DNA of 64,000 nt from Polyangia bacterium (GTDB taxonomy: Bacteria; Myxococcota_A; Polyangia; Nannocystales; Nannocystaceae): positions 339,599-403,598 of the forward strand of contig JAUIFF010000001.1 of the NCBI GenBank assembly GCA_030429545.1, read 5' to 3'. Within the stretch, counting starts at the first letter, position 1, and each line of letters opens with the position of its first letter. The position numbers and the translations under genes were made by a program. Of the stretch, positions 17,480 to 52,295 are shown piece by piece. A model generated the notes under the pieces. The model saw nothing but the letters and a program-made list of their open reading frames with translations, searched no databases and had not been told where the DNA came from.

Positions 17480-19087
17480 ATGGGCAATGGAAAACGGGAA
17501 AGTAAGTACGACTCTGGTAACGTTTGGACTACATGGCCGCGGCTGCTCGCGGTTGGGGTTGCAGCCTTGCTCCTGTCGCCCGTAGCAGCCTGCAGCAGTG
17601 GTGGAGATACAACCAGCGAAACACTTGGGACCGAGGGTCCGACAACCACGACGACGACCACAACCGCCGGGCCGGGAACAACCGACACCGACACCGACAC
17701 CGGGGCCGACACGGCTGCGACGGCGAGCGGGGGTGATTGCGGGAATGGCGAAGTCGACGAAGGCGAGGCCTGCGACGACGGTAACGATGACAACACCGAT
17801 TCGTGTCTCAACACCTGTGAGGAGGCAAGCTGCGGTGATGCGTTCGTGCAGGTCGGTGTCGAAGAGTGCGACGACGGCAACGACGACGACAGCGACTCCT
17901 GCACCAGCAACTGCCAGCTGCCAGTTTGCGGGGATATGATCGTCCAAGAGGGCGAGGAGTGCGACGACGGTAACGACGATGACACGGATGCTTGTACGAG
18001 CACGTGTGTGGCAGCAGCCTGCGGCGATGGTGTGGCCCAAGAGGGCGAAGAGTGTGACGACGGCAACACTGAAGACACCGACGAGTGCACCAACGCCTGC
18101 ACACTGCCAGTGTGCGGTGACGGTGTGGTGTCGAACGGTGAAGAGTGCGACGACGGCAATGCCGAAGATACCGACGCCTGCACCATGGAGTGCGTCGCCG
18201 CAGTCTGTGGCGACGGGATCGTGTGGGAAGGAACCGAGGCCTGCGACGACGGCAACGATGTCGATGACGATGAGTGTTCCAATATGTGCGCCCTCGCCAG
18301 CTGTGGTGACGGCATCGTCCAGATGGGCGAGGAGTGTGACGACGGCAACGATGTCGACTCCGATGAGTGTCCGACCAACTGCCTCAACGCCGTCTGCGGC
18401 GATACTTTTGTCCAAGAAGGGGTCGAGGATTGCGATGATGGCATGGAGTCGGAGATGTGCGACGGCGACTGCACGGCTGTGGAGTGTGGTGATGGCCTAG
18501 CCAACACGCTCGCGGGCGAGGAGTGCGACGACGGAAACGACGACGATACCGATGAGTGCGTTTCCGGTTGTGTCGCCGCGACCTGCGGTGACGGGTTCGT
18601 GCAGGACGGAGTCGAAGAGTGCGACGATGGCAACGAAAACAACGACGACGCGTGCACCAATGATTGTATGCTCAATCAAATCAACATCACCATGAGCTGC
18701 AACCAGGGGCAGGATTGCCAGCAAGAGTGCAACCCGTGGAACTCGTTCCGCTCCAGCCTCACAGGCGGTACCTACTCGGCAGTCACCCTCCGGGGCAGCT
18801 CGGACATGGTCGGTCAAACCTGCTCCAATCCAGCCCTTGCCAACCAGATTTGCAACAACCTCGCCACCGGCACGGCAACCAACGTCCAGTGCGACGGTCG
18901 AACCTGGCGAATCGGTAACTGCGGAGCAGGCGTGGAGATCAACGCCAACGGCAACATGTGTAGCTGCGCAGCCGGATGGGTGGTGCGCCCCTGCATCAAC
19001 CAAGGCAATCCCAACTGGGGCGGCATGAACACGGCGACCTGTAATAGTCCAACACAGACGCTCGAAGTCATCTGTTTTGGCGGCTAG
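17480..19087 (+). CDS. lipoprotein made of tandem Myxococcus-type cysteine-rich repeats ([27 protein letters not shown])
   Basis: Signal with lipobox-like VAACSS. Thr-rich spacer. About 11 consecutive roughly 40-aa repeats carrying ECDDGN(D/T)xDTD(A/E)C...C(V/L)xAxCGDG. Cys-rich non-repeat C-terminal domain. Antisense ORFs 17420..18415 and 17443..18675 are mirror artefacts. Confidence 0.7.
17750..18660 (+). repeat. coding tandem repeat array (about 120-nt period) encoding the cysteine-rich repeats
   Basis: Recurrent gagtgcgacgacggcaacga... / tgcggcgatgg... units are visible at nucleotide level. Confidence 0.6.
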
Positions 19088-24600: not shown

Positions 24601-24741
24601 CGGGAGCGGCTGGTTTGGGCGTGTCAGTGCGCAGATTCGAACGTAGGCAACGCAAGTCAGCGCGCAGATCCGAATGCGGGCACCGCAAGCCATCTCGCCG
24701 GGCGAGACGACCTGCTGACCTGCTGACCTGTGGACCGGACC

Positions 24742-28789: not shown

Positions 28790-29050
28790 GACTTTGCTGT
28801 CCAACGCTCGAGTCATGCGATGGTTCAACGACATCGAGTAACGGGCCAGCTGCTGTCCAACGCGAGTCACGCGATGGTTCAACGACATCGAGTAACGGGC
28901 CAGCTGCTGCGTTTAACGCTCGAGTCACGCGATGGTTCAACGACATCGAGTACGGGCCAGGTGCTGCGTTCAACGCTCGAGTCACGCGAGGATTCACCGG
29001 CATCGAGTAACGCGAGGGGGCGACATCGAGGAACGGTGAGCCGGTGCGTA
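28790..29050. repeat. intergenic tandem repeat array, about 4 copies of a 54-58 bp unit
   Basis: Unit ...cgctcgagtcacgcgatggttcaacgacatcgagtaacgggccagctgctgcgttcaa.... Copies of ggttcaacgacatcgagta at 28822, 28876 and 28934, plus a degenerate fourth copy at about 28991. Lies between convergent gene ends (28768 and 29182). Confidence 0.7.
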
Positions 29051-31214: not shown

Positions 31215-31650
31215 GCCGAGCACAGAGCTCGCCTCGCTACCTGTCGTAGGTCTCCGAACCAACGGTCCCGAGGAGCGTACCTGTTTTTGCCGCAAACACT
31301 TCGAACGCGGCAGCACCGTAGCCGAGTATGAAGCTCGCCTCGCTACTTGTCGTAGGAGTCCGAACAAACGGTTCCCTGTTCGTACCGCAAACACTTCGAG
31401 TGACGACGTGCGCACGAGACGTCGCCCGAAGCTCACCTCGCTACTTGTCGTAGGACTCCGAACCAACGGTCCCGAGGAGCTTCCCGGTTTTCGCCGCAAA
31501 CACTTCGAGTGACGACGTGCGCACGAGAGACGTAGCCCGAAGTTCACGTCGCTACTTGTCGTAGGTCTCCGCACCAACGGTCCCGAGGAGCTTGCCGGTT
31601 TTTGCCGCAAACACTTCGAGTGATGACGTGCGCGTGACAAACACATAGGA
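31215..31650. repeat. intergenic tandem repeat array, about 4 copies of a roughly 100-110 bp unit
   Basis: cgctacttgtcgtagg recurs at 31235, 31341, 31439 and 31550. Each unit contains the palindrome cgtgcgcacg flanked by acttcg...cgaagt, a potential compound hairpin. Overlaps the 3-prime end of the PQQ-like gene, whose last roughly 30 codons fall inside the repeat. Confidence 0.7.
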
Positions 31651-41733: not shown

Positions 41734-42074
41734 ATCGGGAAAAATCGAACGATGTACGGCGGGCCCGGGTTGCTGCCCTATCTCCTACAAATTTGCGATG
41801 CGTAGGGTTTTTGGATGGTTTTGGCTTGGTAACTCACAGTGGCTGGTAGTCGCGAGTTGCAGAAAGCTTCCGAAGTGGTCACTCACGTGACCCCGTCAGT
41901 GCTCGGTACGGCTCTTGACTCGCAACGCCGGTGGAAGCCAAGCCGGTGCTAGTGGGGCTCGGACAGACTTGCCGTCGCGCGCACACCTGTACATCGGTCG
42001 GGAGCAGGTCACGAGCGCCGGCGGAGGTCGAATCGGTGTACTTGCATGTGTTATCGCTAGTACGGGCGAAATCT

Positions 42075-42938
42075 ATGACCGACTTCTTTGCCTTCCATCA
42101 GGTCCTACTCCAATTAGCCAGCCTTGTAGCATCTTTCCTGCTCAGGGATGATATTTGCTATCCTTGGGGAGTGAAGATACGACCAGAGCTTCTCCTTGTG
42201 TGCTGTCTGGGAGGTTGTCCGTCCAAGGGCTCGGTCACGACGTCGTTGACAATCTCAGACACAGGCAGTTCTTCGACGAGCTCTTCGACAAGCACCAGCT
42301 CGTCTGGGGGGAGCGACACTGCTTCGGAACCGTCGTTGACAATGGGGAGTGGCACCGCCTCGACCTCCACCACACTCGGTGAGACCACGGCGGGAGACGG
42401 TGTATGTCCAGAGTGTTCTGATTGCTCGGATCAAGAGACCTGCGTAGCTCGATGCAAAACGGGTCAAAACCCGGCAGACCGTGAGTGCTATGTTGAGTGT
42501 ATTGAGAAAGTCCCATTTTCGAGTAAACTTGAAGCTTGTGAGTACGAAGATTCCTTATGTGGCCCAGACATGACAATAAATGGGTTTGGTGAAGATTACT
42601 TTGCATGCGGGGATGTTTTATGTAGCGATGCATGCGACATCTGCTCGGTTTGTGACTGGTATGAGTGTGAGCTTACGAACCCTTGCAAAGAGGGCTACAA
42701 CTGTAGTCCAATCCGTGTATTTAGCGAGCACGCTTATGACTGGCTGGCTTGTTTACCAAGTGGCGATCTACCGGTGGACTCGCCATGTGTGGAACATAGC
42801 GACTTTGACGAGTGTGAGTACGGTGCAGCTTGTGTTGTCGGTGTCTGCCGTTTCTTCTGTGACGAAGATGATTCATGCCCTCAAGGCTATCATTGTGAAA
42901 CTTTACAAAACTGGGTTAACTTTTGTGTTCTCGACTAG
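42075..42938 (+). CDS. cysteine-rich secreted lipoprotein, paralog A (lower-GC islet)
   Basis: ATG at 42075. An in-frame GTG at 42171 gives a better lipoprotein signal (V)KIRPELLLVCCLGGC. Ser/Thr-rich linker, then a roughly 190-aa domain with about 28 Cys. This domain is collinear with the gene at 43119..43883 (for example ...LEACEYEDSLCGPDMTINGF...CGDVLCSDACDICSVCDWYEC...CPQGYHCETLQNWVNFC). Local GC is about 50%. Confidence 0.55.
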   Translation: MTDFFAFHQVLLQLASLVASFLLRDDICYPWGVKIRPELLLVCCLGGCPSKGSVTTSLTISDTGSSSTSSSTSTSSSGGSDTASEPSLTMGSGTASTSTTLGETTAGDGVCPECSDCSDQETCVARCKTGQNPADRECYVECIEKVPFSSKLEACEYEDSLCGPDMTINGFGEDYFACGDVLCSDACDICSVCDWYECELTNPCKEGYNCSPIRVFSEHAYDWLACLPSGDLPVDSPCVEHSDFDECEYGAACVVGVCRFFCDEDDSCPQGYHCETLQNWVNFCVLD

Positions 42939-42959
42939 AATGCGCCTGGCTTTTGTGGC

Positions 42960-43045
42960 ACCTCGGCGACGACCCATCAGTTGAGGAGCGCAGCTGTCTG
43001 CTCACCGTGACTCCGGAGGTACATTGCGAGTCCCGCGGAGCATCG
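42960..43045. repeat. dispersed repeat copy R1 (core tcaccgtgaNtNcgNagNtNcattgcgaNt)
   Basis: ...acccatcagttgaggagc...gtctgctcaccgtgactccggaggtacattgcgagtcccgcgga..., with two related copies 1.1 kb away (R2, R3). Confidence 0.45.
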
Positions 43046-43118
43046 AGTGGAGCTGCCATAAATCTCTCGCGGTCGGTACAACTTCGACGAAGCAGGTGGT
43101 GTTGATAGCCTTTGCATG

Positions 43119-43883
43119 TTAGCTCGGATAGCAGTACCCAACCCAATTCTGTATGTACATACAGTGAAATCCCTGAGGGCACGAGTCTTGCTTACCACAC
43201 GGAGTGCGGCAAGTTTCAAACACGCAAGCAGCTCCATATACACACTCATCATAGTCGTTGTGATGAGTGCAGGGCGAGCCTACGGGGGAGTCGCCGCTTG
43301 GAAGACAAACCCGCCAGTCATAAAAGATGTCATTACCAAAAACAAGAATTGGGCTACAATTGTAGCCCAGTTCGCATGGAGAATTGACGGAGCACTCATG
43401 CCAGTCGCAGGATGAGCATATATCACACGATTTGCTACATAACACATCGCCACAAGCACGACTAGTGCTATCCTTCCGGAATCCCACTATCCCCATGTCG
43501 GGGCCACAAAGGTATTCATCAAAGTTGCAAGCCTCAAGCTCCGTCGAAAATGGAGCATCTCCCTTAGGGAGACAAACGGTGCCGCACACACCTTCATAGA
43601 TGTTGATTGTACACCTTGCAATACATATTTCGTCATCAGAGCAAGTAGAACACTGTGGGCAATCGAGGTCCCCACCCGTAGCTGTCTCAGTGTCAATGTC
43701 TGTCGTCGATTCTGACTCTGAGCTATTCCCTAGCGAGGTTTCATCCGTTGTCGATGAACCAGTAGTTGTCGAAACTGATGTTGTCCCGCCATCTGTATTG
43801 GAACTTGAGTTTTCGACCGAGCTGCAACCGACCAAGTAGAAGATCGCAATAAATAGTGCGGGAGATACCTTCACATTGCTCAT
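43119..43883 (-). CDS. cysteine-rich secreted lipoprotein, paralog B (convergent with paralog A)
   Basis: ATG at 43883 verified (MSNVKVSPALFIAIFYLVGCSS, lipobox LVGC). Ser/Thr/Glu linker. Cys-rich domain collinear with paralog A (...LEACNFDEYLCGPDMGIVGF...CGDVLCSKSCDICSSCDWHEC...CPQGFHCMYIQNWVGYC). Confidence 0.6.
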   Translation of the reverse strand: MSNVKVSPALFIAIFYLVGCSSVENSSSNTDGGTTSVSTTTGSSTTDETSLGNSSESESTTDIDTETATGGDLDCPQCSTCSDDEICIARCTINIYEGVCGTVCLPKGDAPFSTELEACNFDEYLCGPDMGIVGFRKDSTSRACGDVLCSKSCDICSSCDWHECSVNSPCELGYNCSPILVFGNDIFYDWRVCLPSGDSPVGSPCTHHNDYDECVYGAACVFETCRTPCGKQDSCPQGFHCMYIQNWVGYCYPS

Positions 43884-44077
43884 GATAGCATCATTCAGGG
43901 GGGCTTCACTCGCGAGCAATTTCGACTGTTTTGTGAGCAAGCTTGAAGCACACGAGCCCGTGTTCGTTTGTAGCCACCGCGCAATACCATCGCCACGGTG
44001 TATGCTGAGTCTATGAACTGCACGGCCGCTGACCCTAGCCAGCGGCCGGCTTGCTCACCGCGACACATCAGCCGACA

Positions 44078-47162: not shown

Positions 47163-48179
47163 CTATCTGGGTGATGGCGAGCCGAGCGTGTCGGCGAACA
47201 ACTCGGGGAACACGTTGGCGACCTTGGCCGTGAGATAGGCCCCGTAGGTGCCTTGGTGGTCCATCGGGTCGTGGTTGTCCCAGCGTTTGCGGTGCTCGGG
47301 CGGCGGCGGTCCAAGGTGTTGTAATGGCGCGAGCTGGTCCGGGGTTGCCTCCCAGTCTGGGTCGTAAAAATAGGCGAGTGAAACCCGACCTGGGCCGTCG
47401 GTTCCAACCTGAGCGTGCACGCGGTGGGGCGTTGAACGGTAGTGCCCGTTGGTCAGCCGCTCGAGCATGTCGCCTAGGTTGCACACAAGTGTGCCGGGCA
47501 CGGGTGGCACCGCGGTCCAACCGGCAGGGGTGTGAACCTCGAGACCACCACGTGTATCTTGGCAAAGTACGGTGAGTAATCCGTAATCGGTATGCTCGGC
47601 CACCCCCCAATGGTTGGGGTTGTGACCGGTACGGGCCGGATAGTGGAAGATGCGAAACAGGGTTGTCGGGTCGTGGGTGAGTCCGCAGGCGAAGTAGTCG
47701 CTGGCAAGCCCGAGGCCGCGGGCCATACCCGATAAAAGTGTAGCTGCAAGCGACTGCATGGCCGCGAGGTAGCGGGCGACGAGCTCGGCGAGTTCGGGAA
47801 CCTCGCTTGGAAACGGGTTGGGGCCGTGCAGTGGGGTTTGGGCGCGAACTTTGGGGTGCCCAGTTGGTAGGTGCTTGCCGAAGTAATAACCCTCTTTTTG
47901 GTCGGGCACACCCGAGGTCAACTCACCACCCACGGGAAACCACCCGCGCCATGCCGGGCCAAAGTGGTGCATGGCAACGGCTGCTTTGCGAGCGGGTGGC
48001 AGGGCAAAAAACCTTCGTGCCGCCTGGTCGAGCGCCGCGATGAGTTTGGGGCAGACGCCGTGATTGTGCACCAAGAAAAACCCCGATTGCCGACAGGCTT
48101 GGTCGAGTGAGCGCGCGACCACGTCGTGTGCATTCGCAGGGCCGTCGAGCAGTGGGCCAATGTCGACAAGCGGCAGCAT
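47163..48179 (-). CDS. 2-oxoglutarate/Fe(II)-dependent oxygenase (isopenicillin-N-synthase-like family)
   Basis: N-terminal DIOX_N-like MLPLVDIGPLLDG...QACRQSGFFLVHNHGV. Core HTDYGLLTVLCQD (the HxD motif), distal His in ...GHYRSTPHRVHA..., and the RxS-type region. Confidence 0.8.
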   Translation of the reverse strand: MLPLVDIGPLLDGPANAHDVVARSLDQACRQSGFFLVHNHGVCPKLIAALDQAARRFFALPPARKAAVAMHHFGPAWRGWFPVGGELTSGVPDQKEGYYFGKHLPTGHPKVRAQTPLHGPNPFPSEVPELAELVARYLAAMQSLAATLLSGMARGLGLASDYFACGLTHDPTTLFRIFHYPARTGHNPNHWGVAEHTDYGLLTVLCQDTRGGLEVHTPAGWTAVPPVPGTLVCNLGDMLERLTNGHYRSTPHRVHAQVGTDGPGRVSLAYFYDPDWEATPDQLAPLQHLGPPPPEHRKRWDNHDPMDHQGTYGAYLTAKVANVFPELFADTLGSPSPR

Positions 48180-48199: not shown

Positions 48200-49063
48200 T
48201 TAGCCTGGTAGCCGGCCGTCGGTACCAAAGGTGCGTTCGGGGTTGCGCAGGTGTTCACAAAGTCTTGAAAGGATTCGACCACACATCACACCGTCGACAA
48301 TGCGGTGGTCAAACGTGTAGCTAAACGGCAGCATTGGACGTACTTTGGCTTCGCCGGCGACCGCGATTGCCTCGTGCTGGACGGGCAAAATGCCGACAAA
48401 GCTCCCGAGGCCAAAAAACCGTCGGGGTGGTGTAAACGATGCTGCCCGCGAGACCACGCCGCCAGGGACATTGAGGGTGGAGCCCAAATTGGAAACAAGC
48501 GCCGTCATCGGGTAGACCCGATGAAATTGCCGATACAACGGAAGTTGCTGGCTGGCGGCATCGAGTACGTCGAGCGTGCGGTGTAGCAGGCGGGTAGGGA
48601 TGTGCCGCGCCAATGGCATCAGTCGTAAAAATAAGGGGTTGGGCGTGGCCGAATCTCGGTAGTCTTGGACCCGCCCCGAAACGCGTTCGGCGATGTCTCG
48701 CAGCGAGCGGGTCTCGCATTTGGTGACCAGCACCGCACTCAGCTCGGCCTTGCCACCACCCCCCTTGGCCGCCCCGAGGTCGATCGGCACAGCGATGCCA
48801 ACGTGCTCGTGGCGGACGATTCGACGCCCGACCACGGAGGCATTGACCACGGGAAATTCACGGTAGACCCGCGACAGCGCAGCCATAAATAGGTGTTGCA
48901 CAGTGACCCGCGGCAGCACGTTGGAGGCGTTGAGCTGCTGGAGGTAGGCCTGGGCCTCCGTGAACTCGACGGCGCAACTAAATGACGCGTAGGGCGAAAA
49001 TGGAGGGTACTTGAAGTACCACAGCATCGCCTTGCGAATCACTGAGAGGGGCAGGACCTCCAT
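48200..49063 (-). CDS. stand-alone 2-oxoacid-dehydrogenase-type (E2 catalytic domain) acyltransferase-family protein
   Basis: C-terminus ...SYTFDHRIVDGVMCGRIL... carries the catalytic DHRxxDG motif of E2/CAT-fold acyltransferases. No lipoyl or E1/E3-binding domains. Separated by only 20 bp from the oxygenase gene and co-oriented with it. Confidence 0.65.
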   Translation of the reverse strand: MEVLPLSVIRKAMLWYFKYPPFSPYASFSCAVEFTEAQAYLQQLNASNVLPRVTVQHLFMAALSRVYREFPVVNASVVGRRIVRHEHVGIAVPIDLGAAKGGGGKAELSAVLVTKCETRSLRDIAERVSGRVQDYRDSATPNPLFLRLMPLARHIPTRLLHRTLDVLDAASQQLPLYRQFHRVYPMTALVSNLGSTLNVPGGVVSRAASFTPPRRFFGLGSFVGILPVQHEAIAVAGEAKVRPMLPFSYTFDHRIVDGVMCGRILSRLCEHLRNPERTFGTDGRLPG

Positions 49064-49205
49064 GGTGATGGCATTGTATGCGGGGTTGCCAACAATCCGC
49101 CAGCCCGCTCCCCGAAGTCAGGCGCTGAGCAGTTTGCTGGCGGTCAAGTGCGGGATTGCCAACAATTCGCTGGCCGGGACCCCGGGGTGTGCCGAGGACG
49201 CGAAC

Positions 49206-49400
49206 GCAGCTCGGCCAGCTCGACCAGCTCGACTAGCTCGACCAGCTCGACCAGCTCGATCAGCTCGGCCGGCTCGGCCAGCTCGGCCAGCTCGGCCAGC
49301 TCGACCTGCTCGACCTGCTCGACCTGCTCGACCTGCTCGACCTGCTCGACCTGCTCGACCAGCTCGACCAGCTCGACCAGCTCGACCAGCTCGACCAGCT
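49206..49400. repeat. 9-bp microsatellite (tcgRccNgc)n of about 21 units inside a divergent promoter region
   Basis: Three sub-blocks: tcgRccagc x10, tcgacctgc x6, tcgaccagc x5. Followed by 2x ttggacatg(c/g). Lies in the 468-bp gap between divergent gene starts 49063 (-) and 49532 (+). Read as plus-strand codons it would encode (PAR)n. Confidence 0.8.
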
Positions 49401-49531
49401 TGGACATGCTTGGACATGGACCGAGCGCGCTCCGGAGCGGCAGTGCCGGAGATCCCGCAGGCGAGCAAACGCGTGGATTTTTTGGAGCCGCGGGCGAGCT
49501 GACGTAGGCGTAGGGGGCGAGGTTTTTTCCC

Positions 49532-50338
49532 ATGCGTGACGTGCATAAGTGGAAGGACAAAGTCGAGTTTTCCCTCGACAACCGTCAGATCTTCTTTTTG
49601 TTCTTCGGCCTTTCGGTCGTTGGCTGTTTTGTCTTTGCCCTCGGCGTAATGGTTGGGCGGCGCGGGGACGATGCTCCCAAGATCGCCCGTGCCCAGCAGG
49701 ACGCTCTCGGCCTGCTTGCCGGCGTCGACGAGACAACCCCGGCTGAGCCCGCCGAACAGGTTGGGTTTTCGTTTAAGGAAGGGCTCGCGCAGTCGGCTGC
49801 GGCCGACCTGCCGGAAACCCGAGACCCAGAGGTTCCGCCCCAGCACGACAAGGCCAAGGCCAAGGTCAAGGCAAAGGTCGAGGACAAAGCCAAAAAACCG
49901 GCCAAGCCGGAGCCCAAAAAGCCCCAGCCGCTGTTGGCCAAAAACAACAAGCCAAAGCCGGTGGCCAAACCCCTGCCTGCCGCCCTGCCAAAGCCGCCTG
50001 CAGCCAAGCCCAAGCCACCTACGGTCAAGCCCGAAAATAAGCCTAAGCCCGCGGCGATTCCGGCCAAGGCAACACCCGAGGCGGCGATCCAAAAGCCCAA
50101 GTCGGCCTCCGGGTTTACGTTGCAGATGAAGGCGTTTGCCAACCAGGCCGATGCCGACAAGCTCGCTGACAAACTGCGGCGAAACGGGCACGACGTTCGG
50201 GTCGAGACCGCCGATGTTCGCGGGCGCCTGTGGTACCGCGTGCGCGTGGGTAACTTCACCAAGTGGGACGATGCCCTCATGGCCAAAAAGAAGTTCGAAG
50301 AGGCCGAGTCGGTGATCGCCTACGTCGTCCGTATGTAG
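49532..50338 (+). CDS. SPOR-domain protein (FtsN/DedD-like; TM anchor, Lys/Pro/Ala-rich linker, C-terminal peptidoglycan-binding SPOR domain)
   Basis: TM FFLFFGLSVVGCFVFALGVMV. Long KPxP/AKxK low-complexity linker. C-terminal ...GFTLQMKAFANQADADKLADKLRRNGHDVRVETADVRGRLWYRVRVGNFTKWDDA... is the SPOR pattern. Confidence 0.75.
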   Translation: MRDVHKWKDKVEFSLDNRQIFFLFFGLSVVGCFVFALGVMVGRRGDDAPKIARAQQDALGLLAGVDETTPAEPAEQVGFSFKEGLAQSAAADLPETRDPEVPPQHDKAKAKVKAKVEDKAKKPAKPEPKKPQPLLAKNNKPKPVAKPLPAALPKPPAAKPKPPTVKPENKPKPAAIPAKATPEAAIQKPKSASGFTLQMKAFANQADADKLADKLRRNGHDVRVETADVRGRLWYRVRVGNFTKWDDALMAKKKFEEAESVIAYVVRM

Positions 50339-50933: not shown

Positions 50934-52295
50934 CTAGCCGATGGAGGGAACCTGGTACACCCCCGACCACCCGGGAGGGGCACCCTCGCCGAGGAGTTTT
51001 TGTGCACGTCGGTGGAGGCGTTGTGCGAGGGTATCGTGGGGGTTGAGTTCGTATACGGCGGCAAATGCCTCACATGCCTGGGTGAAGTTGCTCGCTTCGT
51101 AGGCGGCGAGCCCCTGCTCAAAAAGTGGTCGGGTCGACAGCTTTTGGTCGCGCGCCGGATCACTCGAAAACAGTTCGTAGATGTCCATGTTGTGCTTGGA
51201 TTGGTCAAACCGCACCTGGGCGATTTTGCGGGTCCATCGGCGTAGGTCCTCGTCGAGTAGCTCACGCATGGGGCCGCTGAGGAGGGTTTTAACGGCATAA
51301 CGTTTGGTCAGACGCTCGAGTTTGGCTGTGCAATCGACCACCTCTGATATCACAGTACTCTCGAAGCGGTCGGGGGCTCCAACTGTCCCCAAGAGCATTT
51401 GACCACAATGTAGCCCGATACCAACACGTACGTGGTCACCATCTTTGTCGACAAAGTCGACAAGCGCCTGGTGGATAGCGTCGGCTGCATGGACGGCATC
51501 CGCGGTCTCCTCGGGGAACAGGGCCATGACCGCGTCCCCCTCGTATTTGTCGATAAACCCGTGATGCTCGGTAATCGCAGGGGCGACACAGGCCATGTAG
51601 CGATTGAGAAAGTCGAGCCGGGCACCCGGACTCATGCCCGTGGTCTTGCGGGAAAAGCCGCGAATGCCCACAAACATCAACGTAGCCTCGGTTTCGACCT
51701 GGTCGCCGAGCCGAATTTGGGTGATGTCGTCGTGGCCGAGGAGGTCCAAAAATGCCCGGGGGACAAATCTGCTAAACGCCCGGTTGACCTGGCGCAGGCG
51801 GACATTGGCCTCGGCGAGGTCGACCATGCGTTCGGCCACCCGTTGCTCGAGATATTCATTGGCCTGTTCGAGTTTCCGGTTGGCCGCGTGCAGCTGCAAT
51901 TGCAATTTACGCATATTGACGTGGGTCGACACCCGCACAGACACTTCTTTTTGCTGGAACGGCTTGGTAATATAGTCAACAGCTCCGAGCTCAAAGCCAC
52001 GCACTTTGTCGACCGTTTCCGAAAGTGCCGTCATAAAAATAACTGGTATATCCTGGGTTTCGGCGTGCCCCTTGAGTCGCCGACAGGTTTCAAACCCGTC
52101 GATGTCAGGCATCATAACGTCGAGCAAGATCACATCAGGGCGGGTGAGCACGGCCTGCTCGAGCGCACCCTCGCCATCGACCGCTACGAGCACTTTAAAC
52201 CCATCGGCGCTCAGGGCTTCAAACAGCACCTCGAGGTTTGTCGGTGTGTCATCGACGATGAGGACGACGCCTCGGTAATCTGATTGTGTCGTCAT
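50934..52295 (-). CDS. response regulator with class III adenylate/guanylate cyclase output domain and C-terminal helical repeat region
   Basis: ATG at 52295 verified (MTTQSDYRGVVLIVDDTPTNLEVL...DVMMPDIDGFE, a REC domain). Coiled coil. Cyclase core (...ATLMFVGIRGFSRKT...YEGDAVMALF...). TPR-like tail. The start is 1 nt downstream of the kinase stop (TGAcATG). Confidence 0.8.
   Translation of the reverse strand: MTTQSDYRGVVLIVDDTPTNLEVLFEALSADGFKVLVAVDGEGALEQAVLTRPDVILLDVMMPDIDGFETCRRLKGHAETQDIPVIFMTALSETVDKVRGFELGAVDYITKPFQQKEVSVRVSTHVNMRKLQLQLHAANRKLEQANEYLEQRVAERMVDLAEANVRLRQVNRAFSRFVPRAFLDLLGHDDITQIRLGDQVETEATLMFVGIRGFSRKTTGMSPGARLDFLNRYMACVAPAITEHHGFIDKYEGDAVMALFPEETADAVHAADAIHQALVDFVDKDGDHVRVGIGLHCGQMLLGTVGAPDRFESTVISEVVDCTAKLERLTKRYAVKTLLSGPMRELLDEDLRRWTRKIAQVRFDQSKHNMDIYELFSSDPARDQKLSTRPLFEQGLAAYEASNFTQACEAFAAVYELNPHDTLAQRLHRRAQKLLGEGAPPGWSGVYQVPSIG

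Follow-up and report, generated by a model that had tools for sequence, protein, structure and literature searches.

The 9-bp tandem array in the gap between the divergently oriented genes for an E2-like acyltransferase and a SPOR-domain protein is probably a lineage-specific, non-coding intergenic VNTR, which would have arisen as a non-functional by-product of slippage or unequal recombination. The class of this locus is ordinary, and the array is a long, clean, and recently expanded example of it. None of the results obtained here pointed toward a tuning of the flanking genes by the copy number.

Position and anatomy of the array

Tandem Repeats Finder (TRF) scored the array with a period of 9 bp, 21.6 copies, 94% matches, no indels, and a score of 290, so that the preliminary description was right in reporting about 21 copies of a 9-bp repeat. 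The array was composed of 21 full units plus 5 nt, 194 bp altogether, with the consensus CAGCTCGAC on the plus strand and GTCGAGCTG on the minus strand. A two-unit probe gave 18 matches compared to 0.00 expected from 100 shuffles, and TRF and the shuffles together placed the number of head-to-tail short-unit copies at this site far beyond chance. In the window, i.e., the whole stretch of 64,000 nucleotides that was analyzed, TRF found no second array of this kind.

The units were eight copies of CAGCTCGAC, six of CTGCTCGAC, four of CAGCTCGGC, and the singletons TAGCTCGAC, CAGCTCGAT, and CGGCTCGGC, which were distributed to a degenerate left part and two perfect tracts (Table 1). With the exception of the three singletons, this list agreed with the block structure (tcgRccagc)10 (tcgacctgc)6 (tcgaccagc)5 described before, and successive local expansions fit this structure. 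The interval 49195-49420 given for the tract in the preliminary description spanned the array but also took in some 12 nt of unique sequence on the left and the separate 10-bp duplication located at its right end.

Table 1. Features in and around the acyltransferase/SPOR gap (positions in the window; "." indicates no strand assignment)
Feature	Position	Strand	Basis or value
2OG-Fe(II) oxygenase gene (338 aa), separated by 20 bp from the upstream acyltransferase gene	47163..48179	-	PF14226 and PF03171
E2-like acyltransferase gene, 287 aa, first of the leftward pair	48200..49063	-	PF00198 (2-oxoacid dehydrogenase catalytic domain), E = 4.5e-19
Acyltransferase-upstream short conserved block	49064..49081	-	Alignment of three genomes
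36-nt direct repeat, first copy	49079..49114	+	Repeat search
36-nt direct repeat, second copy, 81% identical	49149..49184	+	Repeat search
9-bp array	49207..49400	.	TRF
Left, degenerate array part, units 1-11 (GAC, GGC, and the three singleton variants)	49207..49305	.	Unit list
CTGCTCGAC x6, perfect (units 12-17), 54 nt, longest perfect tract	49306..49359	.	Unit list
4.6 perfect CAGCTCGAC units	49360..49400	.	Unit list
Single-strand fold, minus strand	49290..49420	-	DNA -50.5 kcal/mol, z = -10.5; RNA -71.6 kcal/mol, z = -6.3
Single-strand fold, plus strand	49290..49420	+	DNA z = -0.6; RNA z = -3.5
10-bp duplication GCTTGGACAT x2.1, abutting the array	49398..49418	.	TRF
SPOR-upstream conserved block, ~73 bp	49459..49531	+	Nearly identical in both relatives (about 70-80% protein identity)
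SPOR-domain gene, 268 aa	49532..50338	+	PF05036, E = 1.2e-14
Spacer between conserved blocks, window			378 bp; whole gap 468 bp
Spacer between conserved blocks, L009			88 bp; whole gap 176 bp
Spacer between conserved blocks, L010			54 bp; whole gap 143 bp

The gap and its flanking genes

Measurement confirmed that the array is located in a divergent intergenic region of 468 bp, which had a GC content of 66.5%, and the start codons of the flanking genes were at distances of 144 bp and 132 bp from the array. The Pfam matches (Table 1) bore out the assignment of the flanking products as an acyltransferase, a 2OG-oxygenase, and a SPOR-domain protein. The next gene after the SPOR gene encoded a NIF-type phosphatase on the minus strand. 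The translation of the SPOR gene shows a hydrophobic N-terminal segment resembling a membrane anchor. Between this segment and the SPOR domain, in-frame repeats of 6, 12, 18, and 21 bp (49847-50031) encode a Lys/Ala/Pro-rich stretch.

The genome had been called GC-rich, which is overstated at about 60% GC for the window. The region 42001-44000 had a GC content of 0.51 compared to about 0.60 elsewhere in the window and may be acquired DNA. Overlapping tandem repeats with a period of 93 bp and 70-76% matches were located at 17860-18370 and are probably coding repeats in a large protein.

Comparison with related loci

The gene order SPOR/acyltransferase/oxygenase was common to only two other loci, L009, a Nannocystaceae metagenome-assembled genome (MAG) with an 82% identical acyltransferase, and L010, a JGI metagenome contig with an 80% identical one. 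The comparison set was composed of the window and these two syntenic relatives. A scan of genomes with an acyltransferase profile returned 79 loci, one of which had the gene order and was already known; the genome from which the window comes was not included in these loci, and the nearest named genome was an uncultured Nannocystaceae MAG. A scan of metagenomes with the conserved start of the SPOR gene yielded no matches, so no additional relatives were obtained from this source.

In the three-way alignment, the array was absent in both relatives, and conservation was found next to the two genes. The SPOR-upstream block contained GGCGAGCAAACGCGTGGATTTTTTGGAG, a variable stretch of 8 nt, and GAGCTGACGTAGGCGTAGGG, followed by GAGG 9 nt before the ATG. 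On the other side, the nonamer GCATACAAT (49073-49081, minus strand), which contains TACAAT, preceded the acyltransferase ATG by 9-11 nt in three of three genomes, with no Shine-Dalgarno sequence between the nonamer and this ATG. The array ended 59 bp upstream of the SPOR block and started 125 bp beyond the acyltransferase block. It sits in the variable spacer, outside both conserved blocks. Neither an identical copy number across relatives nor a location inside a conserved coding sequence was observed, as the array was absent from the relatives instead of being constant in them.

The spacer contained two further duplications (Table 1). The 10-bp duplication, when read on the minus strand, provided two ATGs in different frames. 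The two copies of the 36-nt direct repeat were spaced by 70 bp within the lineage-specific spacer; their core TTGCCAACAAT gave 2 matches compared to 0.04 expected, and the repeat was found neither in the relatives nor in the rest of the window. When the array and the 10-bp and 70-bp duplications were each cut to one copy by arithmetic, about 112 bp were left. This indicates that the extra DNA arose in place by tandem duplication and not by insertion of foreign DNA. The three local tandem duplications account for almost all of the extra length of the gap. A search for a mobile-element insertion with terminal inverted repeats yielded as the sole match 8 nt (TGCGGGAT/ATCCCGCA), which is the chance level for a region of such size, and this reading was rejected.

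Variation between strains

In six runs, exact-protein look-ups identified 10 short-read contigs (k = 31) with the flanking genes. Two of them, L007 and L091, stopped short of the array. The contigs reaching the array broke inside the two perfect tracts, and the copy number could not be read from short-read contigs for this reason. Neither a second long-read assembly nor a publication on the sample accessions turned up. L001, a Logan contig found in five samples, was identical to the window down to position 49328, where it ended inside the CTGCTCGAC tract. Due to this exact match, the degenerate left half is considered stable in the strain of L001. On the SPOR side, six contigs (L002 to L006 and L008) started at 49371, and L007 started just past the array.

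A contig from another run, L090, covered the left edge of the array. Compared to the window, it had 22 mismatches in 2176 positions of the flank (1.0%) and 3 in 47 positions of the array (Fisher p = 0.015), a comparison that concerns the sequence and arrangement of the units in one variant strain and not the copy number. An alternative alignment placed two additional GAC units at the left edge and left a single substitution. Under either alignment, the array evolves faster than its flanks, which is the behavior of a VNTR. Since two strains with 99% identity in the flanks differ at the left end of the array, it is polymorphic, and the proposed variability between strains was found to this extent.

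The contig L002 (SRR15635847) was without the 8 bp ATCATAAC present at 52110-52117 of the window (L002 positions 2739/2740), inside a response-regulator/cyclase gene. In L002, this gene was called as two pieces of 366 and 60 aa instead of a single piece of 453 aa. No tandem repeat is present at the site, and either a frameshift at the strain level or an error in the assembly could explain the difference.

Coding potential through the array

Five of the six reading frames were open through the array, and the QLD frame was stopped by a TAG in unit 4. The frames stay open because the period of 9 bp corresponds to three whole codons. The (SST)n frame was cut off from the ATG of the SPOR gene by an in-frame TAG at 49505-49507, so there is no N-terminal extension of the SPOR protein into the array, and an in-frame stop at 49118-49120 separated the (GRA)n frame from the ATG of the acyltransferase gene. 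The most gene-like open reading frame (ORF) encoded 87 aa on the minus strand with the sequence MSKLVE(LVE)n, starting at the ATG at 49407 and ending with the stop at 49144. Pfam gave no match for it, and a homologue search gave a single marginal low-complexity protein with an E value of 3e-4. None of eight versions of the array-spanning ORFs was present in a collection of 15 billion proteins, in which the proteins encoded on either side, on the same NCBI contig of 1.55 Mb, are found.

In the LVE frame, most of the unit variants changed the amino acid (V to A; L to Q, six times; L to P, once). Codons were common in the LVE, QLD, and SST frames and rare in the ARP and GRA frames, with repeat DNA giving this test little power. 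As an alternative to an intergenic function, the array had been suggested to encode a (PAR)n peptide. This suggestion was not supported: measured against the neighboring genes (GC3 of 0.72), the codons of this frame were rare (GCT, CGA, and CCA with 10%, 11%, and 17% of their synonymous sets), the ORF overlapped the start of the acyltransferase gene on the opposite strand, and it was absent from the protein collection. Rfam contained no family for the gap (E values up to 1) or for the whole window. No ORF through the array reads as credible, and the in-frame stops, the missing homologues, and the absence in the relatives all agree with the location of the array in non-coding DNA of the divergent intergenic region.

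Promoter elements and spacing

Scans for sigma-70-like and sigma-54-like consensus sites revealed no site in the 468-bp gap. Judging from its conservation, the SPOR-upstream block probably contains the ribosome-binding site of the SPOR gene and its promoter or operator, and TTGGAG-N17-TAGGCG (49482-49510) is a candidate promoter element on the same basis. On the acyltransferase side, the conserved TACAAT (49073-49078) could be the -10 element of a near-leaderless mRNA. A leaderless or near-leaderless acyltransferase mRNA is also suggested by the position of GCATACAAT close to an ATG that has no Shine-Dalgarno sequence.

The preliminary description had expected that a change in copy number would alter the promoter spacing of both transcription units and might act as a phase- or amplitude-variable switch. 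This was not borne out. With 194 bp, the array is too long to be located between a -35 and a -10 site. The conserved sequences hug the start codons, with the array outside them, and the distance between the two conserved blocks was 54, 88, and 378 bp in the three genomes, which makes a strict requirement for spacing or phasing across the spacer unlikely. Maintenance of the tract across a lineage, a feature of phase- or amplitude-variable repeats, was not observed in relatives with 80-82% protein identity, and because both lack the array, it is not a conserved regulatory feature.

Fold-back structure

CTG- and CAG-type units were complementary at 7 of 9 positions (CTG with CAG and TCGA with TCGA), which makes the right half of the array an imperfect inverted repeat. 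The predicted single-strand fold was strong on the minus strand (Table 1). A fold-back of this kind would favor slippage and is not evidence of a function.

The DNA around the array was also compared with that of iterons and replication origins. No initiator gene was present among the adjacent genes (acyltransferase, oxygenase, SPOR, and NIF phosphatase), and there was no AT-rich region in the gap. Presumably, the 9-mer matches a DnaA box at 6 of 9 and Chi at 7 of 8 positions, a resemblance on which no claim is based. An unrelated, AT-rich metagenome contig, L116, contained 19 copies of GGTCGAGCT at 2250-2580 with a higher-order pattern of 27 bp. Immediately ahead of these copies were an AT-rich stretch and four iteron-like repeats of 18 bp, and an ORF of 735 aa was located upstream, a layout that looks like the origin region of a plasmid or phage.

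Frequency of such repeats and comparison with known systems

The array had been regarded as rare for a GC-rich genome, a claim that turned out to be weak. Three more tandem repeats were found in the window, at 28802-29012 (57 bp, 3.7 copies), 31385-31633 (111 bp, 2.3 copies), and 24623-24689 (33 bp, 2.0 copies); their positions coincided with the ends of the large ORFs listed there or fell between these ends. In loci mostly from Myxococcota, totaling about 0.8 Mb, dozens of arrays with a short period were present, and for some of them the period was not a multiple of three. Four exact copies of the 9-mer occurred in 31 unrelated JGI metagenome contigs in arrays of 4-55 copies, and long open frames spanned some of these arrays and not others. 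The genome seems to be prone to intergenic tandem duplication. Compared to the usual loci of this lineage, the array is long and pure, and its 21 copies with 94% purity are at the upper end of the range.

The VNTRs of Yersinia pestis have units of 7-21 bp in 84% of the cases, and 54.5% of them are intergenic (PMC3689786). The array resembles such bacterial intergenic VNTR or MLVA loci in having a short unit, a head-to-tail arrangement, an intergenic position, and variants in blocks; it likewise differs between close strains and is absent from related species. Unlike in Y. pestis, the host is an uncultured Nannocystaceae-like myxobacterium, and the variation observed here is that of sequence and arrangement only.

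In Haemophilus, the hmw1A repeat with 13-24 copies upstream of the gene is a real tuner of expression (PMC8262952). The hmw tract is located between two mapped promoters, is transcribed into RNA that folds into a hairpin and undergoes processing by RNase III, and higher repeat numbers give lower expression (PMC8262952, PMC12721329). The array and the (ATCTTTC)n repeats of hmw1A and hmw2A of Haemophilus influenzae are alike in copy number, in a unit longer than the classic 1-4 nt, in the position upstream of a gene, and in a repeat strand able to join a long hairpin. Unlike the hmw tract, the array is missing from the relatives and is located in a spacer of unconstrained length. The TAAA tract of nadA in Neisseria meningitidis lies between mapped operators of the repressor NadR and also has an IHF site in its flanks (PMC2791445). 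Here, too, a repeat is positioned upstream of a core promoter, and its length could shift the spacing of distal elements; in contrast to nadA, there is no conserved sequence beyond the array except the promoter-proximal block of the neighboring gene itself. By analogy, a tuning role like that in hmw or nadA would be possible but is unsupported, and the unconstrained length of the spacer counts against it.

DISCUSSION

The following course of events may have generated the array. A short seed in the middle of an unconstrained gap would have been amplified by replication slippage, unequal recombination, or both. Point variants (GAC to GGC, CAG to CTG) would then have spread as blocks, while the same spacer also went through the 70-bp and the 10-bp tandem duplication. 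Once adjacent CTG and CAG blocks existed, their partial complementarity may have allowed one strand to fold back, which would favor further slippage. Located upstream of the conserved promoter-proximal sequences of both transcription units, the array would most likely serve no function of its own and would affect expression only incidentally and modestly, if at all. Several points speak against a non-functional VNTR: the array is located within 150 bp of two start codons, its length and purity are at the top end among related loci, tracts with a similar copy number tune expression upstream of hmw1A (PMC8262952), and the acyltransferase operon could have a long 5' leader that includes the array. 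The evidence for the absence of a function is derived from two relatives and one variant strain.

Evaluation of the alternatives needs to consider, above all, a tunable "volume knob," in which gain or loss of 9-bp units shifts the promoter distance, the helical phase, or the length or structure of a 5' leader and thereby varies the expression of the acyltransferase and oxygenase genes, the SPOR gene, or both. The position in a divergent gap close to both starts, the polymorphism between strains, and the perfect tracts of 6 and 4.6 units, which are prone to slippage, would all agree with such a device. A repeat in a distal promoter region has a precedent in nadA (PMC2791445), and the predicted RNA hairpin on the minus strand, the sense strand of the acyltransferase operon (z = -6.3), recalls that in the 5' untranslated region of hmw (PMC12721329). 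A tuning device is nevertheless unlikely here: both syntenic relatives manage without the array, the spacer has no conserved length, the conserved blocks next to the genes exclude the array, and no promoter consensus is present on either side of it. The flanking genes are presumably also not of the surface or host-interaction type that is usually under the control of repeats. A more specific version, in which the array is part of a long 5' leader of the acyltransferase/oxygenase operon with a promoter back to back with that of the SPOR gene, and in which the CUG/CAG hairpin allows the number of units to tune mRNA processing or translation as in hmw, would be quite improbable.

A protein-binding or structural DNA element, either iteron-like 9-mers or a quasi-palindrome extruding under the negative supercoiling of divergent promoters, is very improbable. 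One strand does have a strong fold-back potential, and the same 9-mer occurs 19 times in the AT-rich non-coding DNA of L116 next to the iteron-like repeats. With 7 of 9 positions pairing and a mismatch every 3-4 bp, however, the folds predict a poor extrusion of a cruciform; no replication or partition gene is among the immediate neighbors, variants of the unit are tolerated in blocks, and the relatives do not possess the array. That the array encodes a small repetitive protein, with the 87-aa minus-strand ORF as the best candidate or else the plus-strand (SST)n or (PAR)n frame, is hardly to be believed. The 87-aa ORF has an ATG at the edge of the array, with a GGAG 22 nt upstream of it and 12 nt upstream of the preceding ATG at 49417; its CTG, GTC, and GAG codons are common ones, and the gene caller assigned a partial 60-aa product to it on L001. 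It is codirectional with and just upstream of the acyltransferase and oxygenase genes, and a peptide gene beside two candidate modifying enzymes is a tempting picture. The open frames, however, follow from the 9-bp period by construction, the ORF is missing next to this enzyme pair in the relatives, and the searches in Pfam and the protein collections as well as the non-synonymous variants in the LVE frame, the rare (PAR)n codons, and the stop in the QLD frame speak against a protein. An assembly artefact, i.e., a source contig with too few or too many copies of the repeat, is extremely unlikely. The unit count inside the two perfect tracts does come from the window assembly alone, as the short-read contigs cannot span them, but the 13 leftmost units and the two edges of the array recurred base for base in independent short-read assemblies of several runs, so that the array is not an artefact of a single assembly.

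As a probably non-functional intergenic VNTR, the array may be useful for telling strains of this uncultured Nannocystaceae lineage apart, and it also cautions that assemblies from short reads break at such a locus. If the copy number did tune the flanking genes, this would extend repeat-driven variation of expression from host-adapted pathogens to an environmental myxobacterium.
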